Shown: piece by piece, positions 2,620-36,837 of the stretch | Layout: every line of letters starts with the position of its first letter | How positions within the stretch are numbered: the first letter of the stretch is position 1 | Source: a virus | Taxonomy: Duplodnaviria > Heunggongvirae > Uroviricota > Caudoviricetes | Virus record (IMG/VR): IMGVR_UViG_2541047941_000005 | DNA: 36,837 nucleotides | Reading direction: 5' to 3' (one strand) | Made by a program: the position numbers and the translations under genes | The notes under the pieces: generated by a model | What the model was told of the DNA's origin: nothing | The model's database searches: none | The model's input: only the letters and a program-made list of their open reading frames with translations

Positions 2620-3210
2620 ATGTCTCGAATTTTTGCTTACTGTCGGATATCAACGCTGGATCAGACCATCGAAAATCAACGCCGGGAAATCGAAAGTGCA
2701 GGTTTTAAAATCAAACCTCAGCAAATAATCGAAGAACACATTAGCGGCTCAGCAGCAACCAGTGAGCGTCCTGGTTTTAACCGGTTGCTTGCTCGCCTGA
2801 AATGTGGTGATCAATTGATTGTGACAAAACTGGATCGCCTTGGTTGTAATGCAATGGATATCAGGAAAACAGTGGAACAACTGACCGAAACAGGTATCAG
2901 AGTGCATTGCTTAGCATTGGGGGGCATTGACCTGACCAGTCCAACAGGAAAAATGATGATGCACGTAATTTCAGCAGTCGCTGAATTTGAACGAGACCTT
3001 TTACTTGAACGCACTCATTCCGGGATAGTAAGAGCCCGCGGCGCAGGGAAACGTTTTGGTCGACCACCTGTGTTAAATGAAGAACAGAAACAGGTGGTAT
3101 TCGAACGAATTAAGTCAGGTGTAAGTATAAGTGCCATTGCCCGGGAATTCAAAACCTCGCGGCAAACCATTTTAAGAGCCAAAGCAAAACTTCAGACACC
3201 TGACATATAA
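2620..3210 (+). CDS. pin: Serine DNA invertase (Pin/Gin/Hin family resolvase-invertase), 196 aa
   Basis: N-terminal catalytic motif [10 protein letters not shown], resolvase core, C-terminal HTH; length equals K-12 PinQ. Confidence 0.9.
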
Positions 3211-29012: not shown

Positions 29013-30036
<1,024 letters not shown>

Positions 30037-30040
<4 letters not shown>

Positions 30041-30348
30041 ATATATTTATGATGAGGACGCTCGTGCTTATTGGCAGGATTTTCAATCTTAAAGGAGTAC
30101 TGATGCTGCAGATAAGACTCAACTTTTTCTGACAATTTTTCTGCTACTTCCAGGAAGACTTGCCGGACGCTCCTTCTGGCTGCTGCCTCATAAAACTCCA
30201 GCGCAGCTCCTTCAACACGGTCCATGGCGACATCCAGGTCAAAAATTTCACCGTCAAAGCGTTCCTTGTCCTGTAAGGCTACAGTTACCGTAACTTTATT
30301 CTCAAAATTACGGACTCCTTTCACAACCAGTTCATAGTCTTGAGTCAT
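30037..30348 (-). CDS. ydfR: DUF1327-family protein YdfR (103 aa)
   Basis: Length and position between holin and endolysin as in Qin. Confidence 0.65.
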
Positions 30349-30352
30349 TGGA

Positions 30353-30568
30353 TTACTCTCCTCTCGCAGCCTTACGCCTGTCTTCTTTAATCTTGAAATA
30401 AAGATTTGTCAGATACGTCAGCAGGCCAAAAACCAGGCTACCCAGCACACCGATTGCAGCCCACTGTGACGGAGTTACTTTATCGAGTAACTGTAATGCC
30501 CAGAAACCAGCATTACCCGCCGATGTGCCATAGGCAACACCTGTTGTTAACTTATCCATTGATTTCAT
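30353..30568 (-). CDS. Pinholin (phage 21 S-type holin/antiholin, 71 aa, dual start MKSM)
   Basis: [71 protein letters not shown] closely resembles S21. Confidence 0.9.
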
Positions 30569-30788
30569 ATCCTCACCCCGATGTACACGGATGGTGCAAT
30601 ATGTTTGAAAAAGATCGGAGTCTACGGGGTAGTTTTGACAGCACACGTTGTTCTCAACGGCGCTAAAGAAACATACACATTAAAAATGTGAGTAATTATT
30701 TTGAAAGAAAGTCATATATAAAATAATAATACGAGAAATGTTTTCATATTTAGTGTACTGTATACGGCCATTTATACAGGAAAAGCCT

Positions 30789-30959
30789 ATGTCAGAACGT
30801 AAAGACTCAAAATCACGCCGTAATTATCTCGTTAAATGTTCCTGCCCAAACTGCACCCAAGAGTCAGAACACAGTTTTTCAAGAGTACAAAAAGGTGCCC
30901 TTTTGATCTGCCCTCATTGCAACAAAGTATTCCAGACAAATCTTAAAGCTGTAGCCTGA
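30789..30959 (+). CDS. Small zinc-ribbon-like protein (56 aa; CSCPNC ... CPHC)
   Basis: ATG with AGGA Shine-Dalgarno; two Cys pairs; followed by terminator; antisense to the late operon. Confidence 0.4.
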   Translation: MSERKDSKSRRNYLVKCSCPNCTQESEHSFSRVQKGALLICPHCNKVFQTNLKAVA

Positions 30960-31020
30960 TTGATTTTATTAGTAACAAGTATTTTTTATATTTTAATAAT
31001 ATATTTAAAGCAGATAATAA

Positions 31021-31042
31021 AAAACCCGCCTGAGCGGGTTTG
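31021..31042. terminator. Rho-independent terminator (strong on minus strand, weaker on plus)
   Basis: aacccgc-ctga-gcgggtt; minus-strand copy is followed by TTTTTTATT. Confidence 0.6.
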
Positions 31043-31322
31043 AGATTGTGGTGCTTTTTGTGGGAGTCATCCACTTACGCACTTTGTTTTGCGATGCCAG
31101 CAGTTAGCTTCTGCTGTGAAACTATTCATGCAGCAAACCTGCACTTCACCACAATGGTTAGCATACTTTTCCTGATTAAGATTTTGCCAAATATGCTAGC
31201 CATTGTTTCATGTATTGGACCTCCTTACTTTTTATTAAAGAGATCCAATATTCACTACTCTGTCCGTATCTCTACTCAGGCATCAGCCTTCTTCGTTATC
31301 GTATACAGACGAGCGATGAATT

Positions 31323-31538
31323 TTAATCAGTAATGATGACATTTGCTGCTGCAGGACCTTTAGCACCACTCTCTATAGAGAAGGTAACCTTTTGACCTTC
31401 AAATAAGGTTCGATAATTATCATTCTGAATCGCAGAAAAATGCACAAACACATCTTTACTACCATCAACAGGAGAAATAAAGCCGAAACCTTTATCAGCG
31501 TTAAACCATTTTACTAAACCAGTCATTTTATTTGACAT
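31323..31538 (-). CDS. cspB: Cold shock protein CspB (71 aa)
   Basis: [38 protein letters not shown]... canonical cold-shock domain. Confidence 0.9.
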
Positions 31539-31848
31539 TCTACATTCCTTAACTTGAGCCTTTCGGCATAAATGGTTTGCATAACAGAAACGACTTCGTA
31601 CTTAATTGGAGAGACTCAAAGAAGGAATAAGTGAATAACACCTGAAATGAGAACTGCTTTAGTAAACTACTTCGTATATCGTCTGTTCTTCAAACCGACG
31701 CAGTCATTAACTCATAGTTGAACATATGAAGCAATGTTTATTTTAGACATCCAGCCACCTTCAATCCTATCAAAAAAGTAGTTTTCTCCAGGAACGTGTG
31801 TATGGTGCACCAGGTTATCAGTATTAAGGAGTTTTTCTGTCCCCTAAA

Positions 31849-32045
31849 ATGACAGGAATTGTCAAAAACTTTGACTACAAAAGCAGCAAAGGTCTTATAT
31901 TCCCATCCGATGGCGTATCGATGCCCAGCTTCACGTTTCAGCTCTCAATCTTCGAGATGCAGAAGAAATTACCACAGGATTACGCGTGGAATTTTGCTGG
32001 ATAAATGGTTCGCGTGGACCTTCAACTGCCAATGTTTATCCCGGG
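31849..32045 (+). pseudogene. cspF: cspF-like cold shock gene with internal frameshift
   Basis: Cold-shock domain N-terminus ([22 protein letters not shown]) in one frame and its continuation ([42 protein letters not shown]) in another; a 1-nt indel near 31913-31917 and loss of the expected stop. Confidence 0.6.
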
Positions 32046-32083
32046 ATGAGATTCAATATCTCTATTGCCCCATTTAAAGCACA

Positions 32084-32112
32084 AAAACCCGCTTATAAGC
32101 GGGTTTTCTACT
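32084..32112. terminator. Bidirectional rho-independent terminator (candidate tR' on minus strand; also ends cspF on plus strand)
   Basis: aaacccgctt-ataa-gcgggttt flanked by A-run upstream and T-run downstream. Confidence 0.6.
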
Positions 32113-32153
32113 TTTTTCTAAACGTCGGATACACAAAGCCCATCGTTGAGAAA

Positions 32154-32182
32154 ATCTTATCCATGTTTTTTGAAAAATGCAA
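32154..32182 (-). promoter_or_regulatory. Candidate late promoter pR' (TTGCAT-N17-TAAGAT) just downstream of Q
   Basis: Sigma70-like -35/-10 on minus strand; terminator about 50 nt downstream. Confidence 0.4.
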
Positions 32183-32213
32183 ACATCATGTCGCCATCTT
32201 CAGCAAAAATCAT

Positions 32214-32966
32214 TTATCTCGTCACCTTCCTCAATTGCGCTTCCGCGTATGCTTCTTCCTGCCAGCACTTTGTTACCAGTTTACCAATGACGTCCGCATA
32301 CCCCTTATACCACTGATAATCGGTCAGGTCTGGTACCAGCTTCTGGACATGACGTCGTGCCAGCGTGGTCGGTAAACGACTAAACCGGTTTCCATTACAA
32401 CGCCCACAAATCTTATATACCGGTACGCCATGAAACCGGGTTCTTTTTTCATCCAGAACAATCCCTTTACCCTTACACCCTCTGCACGCTGTGCTGACTT
32501 CGCCCTTACCATGGCAATGCTGACATAGTTCCTTCACCCATTCTTCCTTGATTACAGATTCCCCGCGTCTGTAGTGTTTCACCACTTCGCGCAATACATT
32601 ATAAAATCCCGTACCTGAACAATGCTCACAGCGAGCCTTACTTGCCGCAGACCTGGAGTAATCAGCAAAGGCAAAATTCACGAGGTAAGGAATAATCTGT
32701 AACCGGATTTCTTCACTCAATTTGTTCAATGTCGGGTTATCCAGTGCCATCGCGTAATTTAGCAGGCCTTCAATCGCAAACTGAGCGTCCTGAACACCAA
32801 CTTTTGCCAGAAATAAGGCCAACCCAAGTGGTGCTTTCGACTGCACCATCCCCTGCGCTGCCATTACATCCGTAATTGTTAAACAACCGGTGCCTGTCGC
32901 TGGAGCGTCATCGCTCAATTTTGGAGATTTTGGGGAGTAATATTTTGGTAAGGCTTCAAGGTTCAT
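32214..32966 (-). CDS. quuQ: Late antiterminator Q (250 aa)
   Basis: Zn-binding Cys clusters ([32 protein letters not shown]); GGAG Shine-Dalgarno; position upstream of the lysis genes; length equals K-12 QuuQ. Confidence 0.85.
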
Positions 32967-32979
32967 GCTCGTTCTCCAC

Positions 32980-34029
32980 TTACGCCAGTACGCCAATTGC
33001 CAGCGCGCGATCGATAAAACGAAATATCAGCTCCAGTTGGGAGCCATACTTCTCTTCAAATGCCACTGTATCCGTATGCAGCTCGTTGTGATGCTTTCTG
33101 CACAAAGGCAACACAAAGAGATCATGTGCTTTTGTTCCCATTCCGCCCTGCCCGTGACCAATCAGATGATGCGGATCGTCGGCTGGCATACCGCAGCAAG
33201 CACACGGCTGTGTCTTAACCCAACGTGTGTATTTCTCCTTAACCCAGCGGCGACGTTTAGGCAGCTTCATGAAAGATTCCGGAGACTCTGGATCAACGGT
33301 GATGCTTACCACCGTCTTTTCCTGTGGTGTTTTTTGTTGCTGGTGGGCGTAAGGCAACGGTGCAAGATTTTTTGTGCGTTGTTTCAATATGCTGGTGGCG
33401 GTCTGCTCTCCCGGTACGATGTCGCTTTCGCGGTACACCGAGCAGATTTTTTCCGCTGGTAATCCCAGCGAACGACGCGATACAGCCTCAGGTAGTGCAT
33501 CCACCACCTGATTGCAGACCGCCCACCAGGATAATTCAGCCAAAGATAATTCCCGCTCCTGCGTACCGCTTATTGCGTGACGGATGACGTCAATCACCCA
33601 TGCTGTCAGATTTTGTTGAGCAAGCAGCTCCAGTGATTCCGATGTCTGGTCACGCAGTTGGTTGTCGCAGTGCCAACACAACACCATTGCGCCGGTACCA
33701 TAACGGTGAATGACTGTTTCAGAGTGATGGTAATCGCCATTAGGCCACTGGCAGGATGTAACATGACGTAATAGCCAGTCAGACAATGCGCCAACACCGC
33801 CAGCAGCACGAATCACCCGTTCGTTACTAAAAAACGGCAGCAATGTTTTGTCTTCCGCCAGCGACTGGCGAACGGCAGGAACGACTCCGGATGGCAGATT
33901 ACGCATGCTTTTTGGTTCCGGTTCCACCAGCACTCGAGGATTATGAAATATCTGTATGGATTCACGGCCCGGCTTAAGGACCACCAGCCCAAGCTCAGGC
34001 ACCAGAACAGGTCTAAGTAATACCCGCAC
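32980..34029 (-). CDS. ydfU: DUF968-family protein YdfU with C-terminal HNH-like Cys/His motif (349 aa from GTG)
   Basis: GGAGG Shine-Dalgarno before GTG at 34029; C-terminal CACCG...HHL...CRKHHNELH. Confidence 0.7.
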   Translation of the reverse strand: MRVLLRPVLVPELGLVVLKPGRESIQIFHNPRVLVEPEPKSMRNLPSGVVPAVRQSLAEDKTLLPFFSNERVIRAAGGVGALSDWLLRHVTSCQWPNGDYHHSETVIHRYGTGAMVLCWHCDNQLRDQTSESLELLAQQNLTAWVIDVIRHAISGTQERELSLAELSWWAVCNQVVDALPEAVSRRSLGLPAEKICSVYRESDIVPGEQTATSILKQRTKNLAPLPYAHQQQKTPQEKTVVSITVDPESPESFMKLPKRRRWVKEKYTRWVKTQPCACCGMPADDPHHLIGHGQGGMGTKAHDLFVLPLCRKHHNELHTDTVAFEEKYGSQLELIFRFIDRALAIGVLA

Positions 34030-34030
34030 G

Positions 34031-34309
34031 TTACCTCCAGATCCGTTGCTGGAAAGTGCGGGACGCACGTGGTGGGCGTTCGGAGTAAGGCAATCTGACT
34101 GAGATTATCCAGTGACGGTAGTCGAGGCTAAGGGCTTTCTTAACCTCGTATCCGCGCCTGCGGTAACACTGAATTATCCATTCAGCCTGCTCTTCAGTGC
34201 ATGGAGGGTGTTGGAACCATTCAGACTTGAATGCGTGAGAATACCGCTCGTGCGTGCAGACAAGAACGGGCGAATTATCAGAATTGTAATATTTTACGTT
34301 GCGTGCCAT
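34031..34309 (-). CDS. Hypothetical protein (92 aa) translationally coupled to ydfU
   Basis: ATG with GGAG Shine-Dalgarno; stop abuts ydfU start. Confidence 0.5.
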   Translation of the reverse strand: MARNVKYYNSDNSPVLVCTHERYSHAFKSEWFQHPPCTEEQAEWIIQCYRRRGYEVKKALSLDYRHWIISVRLPYSERPPRASRTFQQRIWR

Positions 34310-34375
34310 CGGTTTTCTCCGGTGGCACGGTGTTACTCAGCGGGAGTTCAGCCCCGCGCAAGATTGTAGATGAGT

Positions 34376-34627
34376 TTATTCTTCTGCAAAAGCTAAAAAG
34401 CCTGCTTTTATTCCGATCTCTTTCAGTGCCTGTAATGAAGTGACAAACTCACCTTCGCGCAAGATAAATCCGTCTGTCACTCGACCATCCACAAAATTAA
34501 TTAACGCAGCCCCATTCTTTCGCAAACACATAATGCGGTAATGACTAACAAGATTTCCATTTTCAACGCACACAGCATAGAGGCCATCTTCACAAAAAAT
34601 TTTACGCAATTCTTCGATGTTCATCAT
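34376..34627 (-). CDS. rem: Hypothetical prophage protein (83 aa), likely Rem homolog
   Basis: GGAAGG Shine-Dalgarno; length and position between ydfU and hok as in Qin. Confidence 0.45.
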   Translation of the reverse strand: MMNIEELRKIFCEDGLYAVCVENGNLVSHYRIMCLRKNGAALINFVDGRVTDGFILREGEFVTSLQALKEIGIKAGFLAFAEE

Positions 34628-34744
34628 CAGAATCCTTCCGGATAATTAGCTCTCCCCTTTAAGGGACCATCCCTCTTATCCCTGCGCGCTACTTAAGTAT
34701 TTTTGATTCTATTCCGGCACCGTCCAGAACTTCAAACGCGTTGA

Positions 34745-34773
34745 AAATAAAAACAAAAACCCGCCGAAGCGGG
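34745..34773 (-). terminator. Rho-independent terminator of hok mRNA
   Basis: Minus strand cccgc-ttcg-gcggg followed by TTTTTGTTTTT. Confidence 0.7.
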
Positions 34774-34843
34774 TTAAGTGCGGGTGCGTTGAGGATGCCT
34801 GCCACATCAGAGGTGGCGAGGGATTTCTCCCTCGCCGGGTTTC

Positions 34844-34999
34844 TTACTCCTCAGGTTCGTAAGCTGTGAAGACAGCGACCTCCGTCTGGCCGGTTCGGAT
34901 TCGTACCTCGCAGAGGTCTTTCCTCGTTACCAGTGCCGTCACTATGACGGTTAAACAGATGACGATCAGGGCGATTAACATCGCCTTTTGCTGCTTCAT
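34844..34999 (-). CDS. hokD: Hok-family type I toxin (51 aa)
   Basis: MKQQKAMLIALIVICLTVIVTALVTRKDLCEVRIRTGQTEVAVFTAYEPEE matches my recollection of HokD/RelF. Confidence 0.9.
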   Translation of the reverse strand: MKQQKAMLIALIVICLTVIVTALVTRKDLCEVRIRTGQTEVAVFTAYEPEE

Positions 35000-35056
35000 A
35001 GCCTGCTTCTCCTTGCCTTTCGGCACGTAAGAGGCTAACCTACATATGTCTAGCAT
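34844..35056 (-). CDS. mok: mok-like overlapping leader ORF of hok (70 aa, same frame)
   Basis: ATG at 35056 opens the frame that continues into hok. Confidence 0.5.
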   Translation of the reverse strand: MLDICRLASYVPKGKEKQAMKQQKAMLIALIVICLTVIVTALVTRKDLCEVRIRTGQTEVAVFTAYEPEE

Positions 35057-35210
35057 GAAATTGGCCTCAGATTAATGTTAAGCGTCTTGCAGGACGCGTA
35101 ATGTTAACTGGGGCTTTTCTCTATCTGCCGTTGGTGTTCATGCCCGAGGCAGATAGCCTCAAGCACCCGCAGCCATTCTACTTAACTACCGTTACCTCGC
35201 CAATGTGAAA

Positions 35211-35300
35211 TCAGTCAGAAAGGCGATCCATAAGAACAATAGCAAGACAATAAATCGCCATTACAGCCGTAATAGCCAGCGCACATTTGAGAACCAGCAC
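35211..35300 (-). CDS. Candidate small hydrophobic peptide (29 aa, MLVLKCALAITAVMAIYCLAIVLMDRLSD, GTG start)
   Basis: AGGAGG Shine-Dalgarno 5 nt upstream of GTG; single predicted TM helix; in AT-rich island. Confidence 0.3.
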   Translation of the reverse strand: MLVLKCALAITAVMAIYCLAIVLMDRLSD

Positions 35301-35673
35301 CACAACCTCCTGTATTGGACGTAGACCAGTCCTGATGAATATGAGGCTGTCTCGTCAGTGATTCAATACAACTATTGGGTATAGTTTCTCTGATTTTTTC
35401 TGTGGAAATGGGGCACAACCACTAGTCACCACCAGCACTTCTTTTAATACGCAAAGTCCGACACAAGCTAACCTTCTAGTCCGCTTTGAGCGAAAAACAG
35501 CCATAATTTAGTGCCACGTATATAATGATAGAGCTATTCAAGCTAGCAATTCACATGTAAAAATTCAGAGGGTAGAAGCACATAGTTATAAATGTTGGCT
35601 CCATCGACAAATTGCGGTCTCAAGTACATTTATTAATGTTGCCCCCGCATTAACAAATCATCAAGGTGACGAC

Positions 35674-35788
35674 ATGGACGATATTAATATCAGCCTCGAC
35701 GAACTTAACACTATTGATTTATCCCCCTTAATCCAGAGTAAGCTGCCAGTTACCTGCTTTGATATCACAAAGTATCTTTCTAGCCTAG
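35674..35788 (+). pseudogene. 5' fragment of an unknown gene cut by IS5 insertion (MDDINISLDELNTIDLSPLIQSKLPVTCFDITKYLSS...)
   Basis: AAGGTGA Shine-Dalgarno 4 nt before ATG; reading frame runs straight into the IS5 terminal repeat at 35789. Confidence 0.45.

Positions 35789-36837
<1,049 letters not shown>

Follow-up and report, generated by a model that had tools for sequence, protein, structure and literature searches.

Small single-pass inner-membrane proteins of Escherichia coli, such as AcrZ, MgtS, MgrB and CydX, modulate larger membrane proteins and are encoded by core-genome genes with known partners. Another class of short, hydrophobic, single-helix proteins with charged tails is represented by the type I toxins (Hok, TisB, ZorO, DinQ, ShoB, Ibs and Ldr). 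Among larger proteins, the HEPN RNases include the HEPN/MNT toxins, Csm6, the C-terminal domain of AbiA, RnlA/LsoA and HEC-08, and DUF4209 was assigned to this superfamily by Anantharaman et al. 2013 (PMC3710099). The phage defence candidates of PADLOC (PDC systems) are 145 untested candidates, predicted from relatives embedded in known defence systems (Payne et al., bioRxiv 10.1101/2024.01.29.577857), and the same report showed that HEC-08, a HEPN candidate different from the DUF4209 protein described below, loses its defence activity on mutation of the motif histidine. Here, we compare with these systems the interval 35057-35788 of the IMG/VR virus record IMGVR_UViG_2541047941_000005 (36,837 nt; the whole stretch is hereafter called the window). 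It lies between a hok gene and a copy of the insertion sequence (IS) IS5, and it holds a 29-codon gene on the minus strand and the start of a DUF4209 gene on the plus strand, which is cut by IS5.

The window corresponds to a Qin-like lambdoid prophage whose tail, head, lysis and Q-antiterminator modules are complete. Many E. coli genomes carry prophages 99.9% identical to it, and positions 29057-35788 are 99.94% identical to the chromosome of E. coli ATCC 25922. The interval is probably a mosaic junction of three independent units, namely the control region of a hok/sok locus, a small peptide gene and variable cargo. Most of this is ordinary: the hok/sok locus and the IS5 insertion are of well-known kinds, and the cut gene is a member of a candidate family that had been catalogued before. 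The finding is thus largely ordinary, and its modest interest resides in a widespread, lineage-restricted gene for a putative small membrane protein, which lacks RefSeq annotation and is under purifying selection.

The peptide gene occupies 35211..35300 on the minus strand, with a GTG start codon at 35300-35298 and a TGA stop codon at 35213-35211. A small open reading frame (ORF) behind an AGGAGG motif had been proposed there by a first-pass annotation of the sequence, and both elements are present, the Shine-Dalgarno sequence AGGAGG being located at 35306..35311 on the same strand, 5 nt before the GTG. AGGAGG or AGGAGA was found in every divergent class of the locus, and the GTG at 35300 is conserved; an alternative GTG at 35303 varies. 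The product, (M)LVLKCALAITAVMAIYCLAIVLMDRLSD, harbours one predicted membrane helix (residues ~6-24), with a grand average of hydropathy (GRAVY) of 1.74 and a 19-residue segment of mean hydropathy 2.58. The peptide has a small-xxx-small face (A7, T/A11, A15), which would be compatible with helix-helix binding, two invariant Cys residues and a charged C-terminal tail.

Homologues of the peptide are conserved in related prophages. The ORF is intact in all 10 loci of a first alignment, including one without hok beside it that has 77% DNA identity and differs from the window by 10 synonymous and 5 conservative changes. A degenerate DNA pattern scan of IMG/VR yielded 120 further peptide loci, and the ORF is intact in 126 of the 130 copies present in the fetched loci, which represent 20 distinct intact DNA versions. 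Between these versions, variable sites number 6, 2 and 16 at codon positions 1, 2 and 3, respectively, with a Nei-Gojobori ratio of nonsynonymous to synonymous changes (pN/pS) of 0.16, far beyond chance; in the 15 codons outside the search pattern the corresponding numbers are 4, 1 and 12. All replacements are hydrophobic swaps (A/T/V, M/V/I, I/V, A/V) or exchanges between D and E. Such purifying selection on the peptide sequence implies that the product is what selection acts on. These comparisons indicate that 35211..35300 is a genuine coding gene, conserved and specifying a hydrophobic peptide with a single helix, as the first-pass annotation had suspected.

Other ORFs of the region did not withstand the same analyses. 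Two minus-strand ORFs of 49 and 67 residues that overlap it were ruled out as genes by 1-nt and 14-nt indels. A 39-residue plus-strand ORF was ruled out as well, since the variable sites of the peptide gene fall on the first codon positions of this opposite frame, which is therefore not selected. The record of phage HannyBb (L007) lists plus-strand ORFs at 2545-2652 and 2649-2834, equivalent to positions 35101-35208 and ~35205-35390 of the window, which lie opposite the hok leader and the peptide gene. Both annotations are probably spurious, since the pattern of substitutions speaks for the minus-strand frame of the peptide.

The peptide gene and its upstream 60 nt were found in 1952 of 5426 complete E. 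coli genomes (~36%). In RefSeq, the peptide is unannotated in every one of the matches listed for these carriers, and an exact look-up in GenBank returned a few 'hypothetical' or 'membrane protein' entries, including those of REL606 and BL21. Outside E. coli, in 185,579 species genomes, the pattern was detected only in E. albertii, E. ruysiae, Shigella flexneri and one scaffold of a metagenome-assembled genome (MAG). A phmmer search with a 30-residue query against 1.84 billion representative proteins returned only copies with 83-100% identity and no distant homologue; thus, neither the pattern scan nor phmmer detected relatives beyond Escherichia and Shigella. The peptide matched no profile in Pfam, NCBIfam, PADLOC or PHROGs, and the literature yielded nothing specific on a named small protein upstream of hok. 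The gene is absent from the homologous position of the K-12 Qin prophage, and for this reason it has probably escaped the small-protein surveys performed in K-12. This amounts to an annotation gap: a 29-codon gene under purifying selection is present in about one-third of sequenced E. coli, including ATCC 25922, BL21 and REL606. As to the MAG scaffold, which is labelled Collinsella sp. (L137, 3.3 kb), its positions 2965-3150 hold a peptide gene of the E. coli type, after which come the hok promoter and leader, and it is almost certainly a binning contamination from an Escherichia prophage.

One could argue that the small ORF is not translated and that its conservation reflects a function of the DNA or RNA, either in the control of the hok promoter or as part of a structured early rightward phage transcript. 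The silence of RefSeq and its PGAP annotation in all matches listed, the ORF ending 8 nt short of the -35 hexamer of hok and the opposite-strand ORFs given instead in the HannyBb record all fit this idea. Nevertheless, the 6/2/16 distribution and the pN/pS value of 0.16, with conservative replacements only, are the signature of a translated frame, and the variable-site positions indicate that the opposite ORF is not under selection. In addition, the ORF, its Shine-Dalgarno sequence and its start codon are retained where hok is absent, and the ORF region shows no excess of RNA structure. We regard an untranslated element as highly improbable. The same loci show that the peptide gene is separable from hok: the hok leader begins 42 nt after the stop codon (41 nt in one case) in 111 of 128 copies, and unrelated DNA is found there in the other 17.

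What the peptide does was approached by comparison with known small proteins. The first-pass annotation had described it as resembling a type I toxin, and its size and hydrophobicity bear this out, as it is a short, hydrophobic, single-helix peptide with a charged tail, is chromosomal or prophage-borne and adjoins a true hok/sok locus. The corresponding proposal is that it represents the toxin of a new type I pair, depolarizing the membrane and being translationally repressed by a small antisense RNA. Its strong Shine-Dalgarno site and its position next to hok in prophage accessory DNA are in line with this, and a conserved non-coding block of 110 nt just upstream could house a divergent small RNA. 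However, the features of type I control did not show up. The promoter scan detected no opposite-strand promoter-like site in 34700-35800, and Rfam gave sok only; an antisense RNA opposite 35211..35310, as had been envisaged earlier, thus finds no support in these scans, with the proviso that a consensus scan may miss an RNA. The predicted peptide mRNA is not unusually structured (-40.9 kcal/mol vs -39.9 +/- 3.8 for shuffled sequences, z = -0.26), which argues against a fold hiding the ribosome-binding site, and synonymous sites are unconstrained, third positions being variable in 16 of the 29 codons. One class of carriers lacks the upstream block altogether, and in phage mEp460 it has lost 14 nt. 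A divergent small RNA encoded in the block at 35367-35478 and pairing with the start region of the peptide gene was considered and rejected, because the complementarity amounts to only 8 nt, is lost through the mEp460 deletion and is changed in another variant that has no compensating change in the mRNA. All in all, a new type I toxin is a rather improbable identity for this peptide.

The peptide is not a Hok/Gef protein either: it gave no Pfam or NCBIfam match at E <= 0.1, whereas the neighbouring true Hok does match, and the possibility that it is a truncated Hok duplicate was discarded for lack of a profile match. More generally, unlike the known type I toxins it has no antisense RNA signature and no structured mRNA sequestering the Shine-Dalgarno sequence, and no sequence relation to them was detectable in the four profile collections or among the 1.84 billion representatives. 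With AcrZ, MgtS, MgrB and CydX it shares its size, single helix, packing face and the fact of having been missed by automatic annotation, but it is prophage-borne and restricted to Escherichia and Shigella. We infer from these features that the prophage-borne product is a single-pass peptide acting in the membrane. It would reside in the inner membrane, act via a membrane partner or by self-association, and serve a prophage accessory ('moron') function. A more specific proposal is that it is the founder of a new family restricted to Escherichia and Shigella and serves the prophage as a membrane effector, either in superinfection exclusion, by blocking phage DNA entry, or as a toxin under an unrecognized control by RNA or protein. 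We put this forward tentatively and consider it unlikely as it stands. If it were true, ~36% of E. coli genomes would carry an unannotated effector peptide that borders a lambdoid defence-gene hotspot on its fixed side.

Upstream of the peptide gene, a putative sigma-70 promoter of its own was delineated at 35338..35366 on the minus strand, with TTGAAT (35366-35361) and CATATT (35343-35338) separated by 17 nt, which predicts a 5' untranslated region of ~30 nt. CATATT, the candidate -10 hexamer, is the most conserved element of the upstream 70 nt, with an entropy of 0.17 bits vs 0.45-0.79 elsewhere. The two hexamers and their 17-nt spacing are retained in four divergent classes with differing spacers, the -35 hexamer being TTGAAT or TTGAAG. 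Farther upstream, a block of ~110 nt (35367..35478, unstranded) is conserved in most but not all peptide carriers: it is absent from the class represented by L007, L010 and L011, and in addition to the 14-nt deletion of mEp460 it displays 1-nt indels. Such indels indicate that the block is not coding. It showed no Rfam match and no clear promoter.

This block ends at an unstranded hairpin at 35479..35502, with the consensus GTCCGCT-N10-AGCGGAC. The copy in the window is imperfect, but 29 of 35 distinct versions retain 6-7 of the 7 pairs, and two pairs are altered on both sides in the divergent L010 class. The hairpin is followed by no U-tract on either strand and is therefore not a standard intrinsic terminator; it may represent a recombination boundary, an RNA end or a processing site. 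Homology between prophages breaks sharply at this point, with complete divergence beyond it (L003-L011 and the equivalent positions of L012-L131). In our window, the match beyond ~35500 is confined to 151 genomes, all of which carry the DUF4209 gene.

Between the hairpin and the DUF977/ren-like and O replication genes lies a slot whose cargo differs between prophages (L001 6442-8620, L004, L005, L006, L008-L011 and many of L012-L131). Its occupants include the DUF4209/PDC-S39 gene, a SIR2-like protein, a TPR protein with DUF262, QueH, a HAD-like hydrolase and unnamed proteins, as well as PD-T7-1 (E = 4e-157) and FRG-domain proteins matching PDC-S15 (E = 3.5e-99). The site is a variable cargo and defence hotspot of lambdoid prophages, and the block comprising the peptide gene and hok forms its fixed border. 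Several abundant cargo families had no PADLOC match; they could be new defence candidates. The slot, with its PD-T7-1, FRG/PDC-S15, SIR2-like, DUF262 and HEPN/PDC-S39 genes, could be mined for more of them.

This arrangement bears on the suggestion of one uncharacterized accessory module to which the peptide and the cut gene would both belong. They are divergent neighbours ~370 bp apart, both here and in the 151 genomes with the intact DUF4209 gene, as might be expected of a two-gene accessory or defence system. Nevertheless, the peptide gene occurs in ~13 times more genomes than the DUF4209 gene (1952 vs 151) and sits beside at least ten unrelated cargo genes, and the sharp break of homology at the hairpin falls between the two. 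Their phylogenetic ranges also disagree: the DUF4209 protein has widespread homologues in Vibrio, Pseudomonas and cyanobacteria, whereas the peptide was not detected outside Escherichia and Shigella. The distribution data contradict the one-module reading, the main reason for rejecting it being that the DUF4209 gene is only one of many alternative cargoes, and we find such a pairing scarcely credible. Of the original suggestion, the defence-type nature of the cut gene was supported by its PDC-S39 and HEPN matches, and the shared module was not.

The cut gene starts at ATG 35674 on the plus strand, preceded by AAGGTG at 35663-35668, and is interrupted after 38 codons, as had been noted in the first-pass annotation. 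Positions 35674..35788 thus encode the first 38 residues, plus 1 nt, of a 595-residue protein with DUF7380, TPR-like and DUF4209 (HEPN) regions. The 38 codons match the beginning of WP_000340969.1 in ATCC 25922 with 100% identity, and comparison with IS-free homologous prophages identified the intact 595-residue gene in the 151 complete E. coli genomes mentioned above. A cargo-specific region of ~38% GC precedes it on the same strand (35503..35673), in which no plus-strand promoter-like site for the gene reached the scan threshold.

As the window holds residues 1-38 only, the intact ATCC 25922 allele was used for domain analyses. Pfam DUF7380 covers residues 4-166 and PF13910 (DUF4209) residues 484-573, with 33.9 bits for the latter against a cut-off of 22.3, and the protein thus matches a HEPN family profile. 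PADLOC models of PDC-S39, a single-gene candidate system, match it over nearly its full length (PDLC05012, E = 2.1e-102, residues 43-581; PDLC05011, E = 7.3e-102). R546 and H551, which form the Rx4H motif (RNQLAH), are invariant in 35 homologues with identities down to 24%, and again in an alignment of 18 C-terminal sequences; Q482, E484, S486 and R488 are also invariant in the 35 homologues. The C-terminal domain adopts the all-alpha four-helix HEPN fold, and the full-length AlphaFold model (predicted local distance difference test score, pLDDT, 89.3) matched only TPR-like repeats in structural comparisons. The likeness to PDC-S39 extends nearly end to end, with the same Pfam architecture and a stand-alone gene; the locus described here differs in that only 38 codons remain before IS5, and the family itself is a prediction. 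The DUF4209 protein can be distinguished from the HEPN RNases named above: it lacks an MNT-type antitoxin, a CARF domain and a partner gene, its N-terminal 400 residues, made up of DUF7380 and TPR-like repeats, have no counterpart in them, and sequence identities are 6-16%.

By its profile matches, the cut gene is an accessory, defence-type candidate and not a structural or regulatory phage gene. By analogy with HEPN defence proteins, the intact protein would most likely be an RNase switched on in phage infection, with its N-terminal DUF7380 and TPR-like parts serving as a sensor or regulator, and the invariance of the Rx4H residues suggests that catalysis is probably retained. Homologues of the same architecture are found in Vibrio, Aeromonas, Shewanella, Pseudomonas and cyanobacteria. 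In the two contexts inspected, those of Vibrio cholerae and Pseudomonas trivialis, the gene forms an islet by itself. For a first functional test of the PDC-S39/DUF4209 HEPN family, a convenient clone would be the intact allele of ATCC 25922, located at 3486765-3488552 of NZ_CP009072.1.

In the genome from which the window derives, this defence candidate is dead because IS5 has cut it. The left end of IS5, GGAAGGTGCGAAC, occurs once in the window and begins at 35789, directly after the CTAG target site at 35785..35788 (unstranded), where the intact gene reads ...TCTAGCCTAG and continues with GTGATGG. The element occupies 35789..36837 on the plus strand, with its left inverted repeat and a complete 326-residue transposase that matches NF033581 (366.8 bits, E = 7e-110). 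The left end, the transposase and the CTAG site, which conforms to YTAR, identify the insertion from the left side of the element. Thus, IS5 transposed into CTAG after codon 38 of the DUF4209 gene. The last position of the window, 36837, is the end of the stop codon of the transposase. If this copy has the standard IS5 length of ~1195 bp, the window stops ~146 bp short of the end of the element, as would be expected if the assembly broke off at a repeated IS. In other prophages, IS421 or ISEc8 is inserted within 1-2 kb of the same hok locus (L004 871-1983; L006 1-1397). Together with the IS5 copy described here, these cases suggest an accumulation of insertion sequences near this hok region.

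Several observations weigh against the picture drawn so far. With regard to the peptide gene, its putative promoter matches the consensus at only 8 of 12 positions, below the scan threshold, and the -35 hexamer is conserved no better than the spacer. For the cut gene, the window ends inside IS5, before the remainder of the gene could show, and the IS5 junction is carried by none of the 5426 complete E. coli genomes; the interrupted ORF was therefore completed from IS-free alleles (ATCC 25922 and others), which gave the intact gene. As for its proposed role, PDC-S39 is one of 145 candidates whose defence function is a prediction, our literature search found no DUF4209 protein with demonstrated defence or RNase activity, and the Vibrio and Pseudomonas homologues are located among housekeeping genes, with no recognizable defence islands.

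These last points also feed the alternative that the DUF4209 protein has no part in defence and is instead an RNA-processing or regulatory factor of the phage or host, or an inactive HEPN scaffold. Besides the predicted status of PDC-S39 and the isolation of the Vibrio and Pseudomonas homologues, the relatives of the protein in PHROGs belong to phage families of unknown function, and C6orf70/ERMARD, the DUF4209 protein of eukaryotes, is no immune protein. Against this stand the invariant Rx4H residues, the patchy, islet-like distribution of the gene, its AT-richness and orientation opposite to the phage early operon, which are typical of a moron, and the presence of PD-T7-1 and other defence candidates in the same slot of sister prophages. 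A function outside defence thus appears unlikely, and we retain the defence-type candidate as the preferred reading of the cut gene.

The third unit of the junction, on the hok side, is a complete hok/sok locus. The mok and hok frames lie at 34844..35056 on the minus strand (hok coding sequence, 34844-34999), as deduced from the ORF list, an NCBIfam match to the Hok family and the hokD label in the identical region of ATCC 25922. Next to these frames, Rfam RF01794 (sok) spans its full model at 34994..35168, with 112.7 bits (E = 1.6e-26) against a gathering score of 59. This minus-strand segment represents the 5' leader of the hok mRNA and the sok antisense region, of which 35057-35168 fall inside the interval; the homologous stretch is labelled sokW in phage 933W. 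The hok leader was matched in 4365 genomes. A putative hok promoter, identified by its pattern (TTGGCG-17-TAGAAT, 9 of 12 matches), is found at 35175..35203 on the minus strand, with 6 nt between it and the Rfam leader match that follows downstream, and it is kept in an alignment of nine hok-carrying loci.

The first ~150 nt of the interval (35057-35203) therefore consist of the hok/sok leader and promoter-like site, and the ~0.7 kb between hok and IS5, which had been taken for one AT-rich island, is not a single piece. Nor is its composition remarkable: its GC content is 42.8%, compared with 50.1% for the whole window, and 17.5% of equal-sized windows of the same prophage have GC contents as low or lower. 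Clear AT-richness is confined to 35498-35788, with 38-39% GC.

With the K-12 Qin prophage, the window shares the same backbone, with rem, ydfU, ydfT, cspB and essD in the same order, and a hok gene 99.4% identical up to position 35013. Homology ends there, where relE begins in K-12, confirming the earlier remark that relBE sits at this place in Qin; no RelE- or RelB-like frame is present in the window. In Qin, the hok leader, sok and promoter are replaced by relBE, fused at this point, and the peptide and DUF4209 genes are lacking, whereas the prophage described here retains the complete hok/sok locus.

At the 3' end of the hok transcript, the segment 34754-34841 (minus strand) gave sub-threshold Rfam matches to isrK (25.7 bits) and rsmX (22.2 bits), and a terminator-like hairpin is found at 34775-34758. 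It is most likely that the hairpins of this segment represent the hok terminator and fold-back region rather than a separate small RNA.

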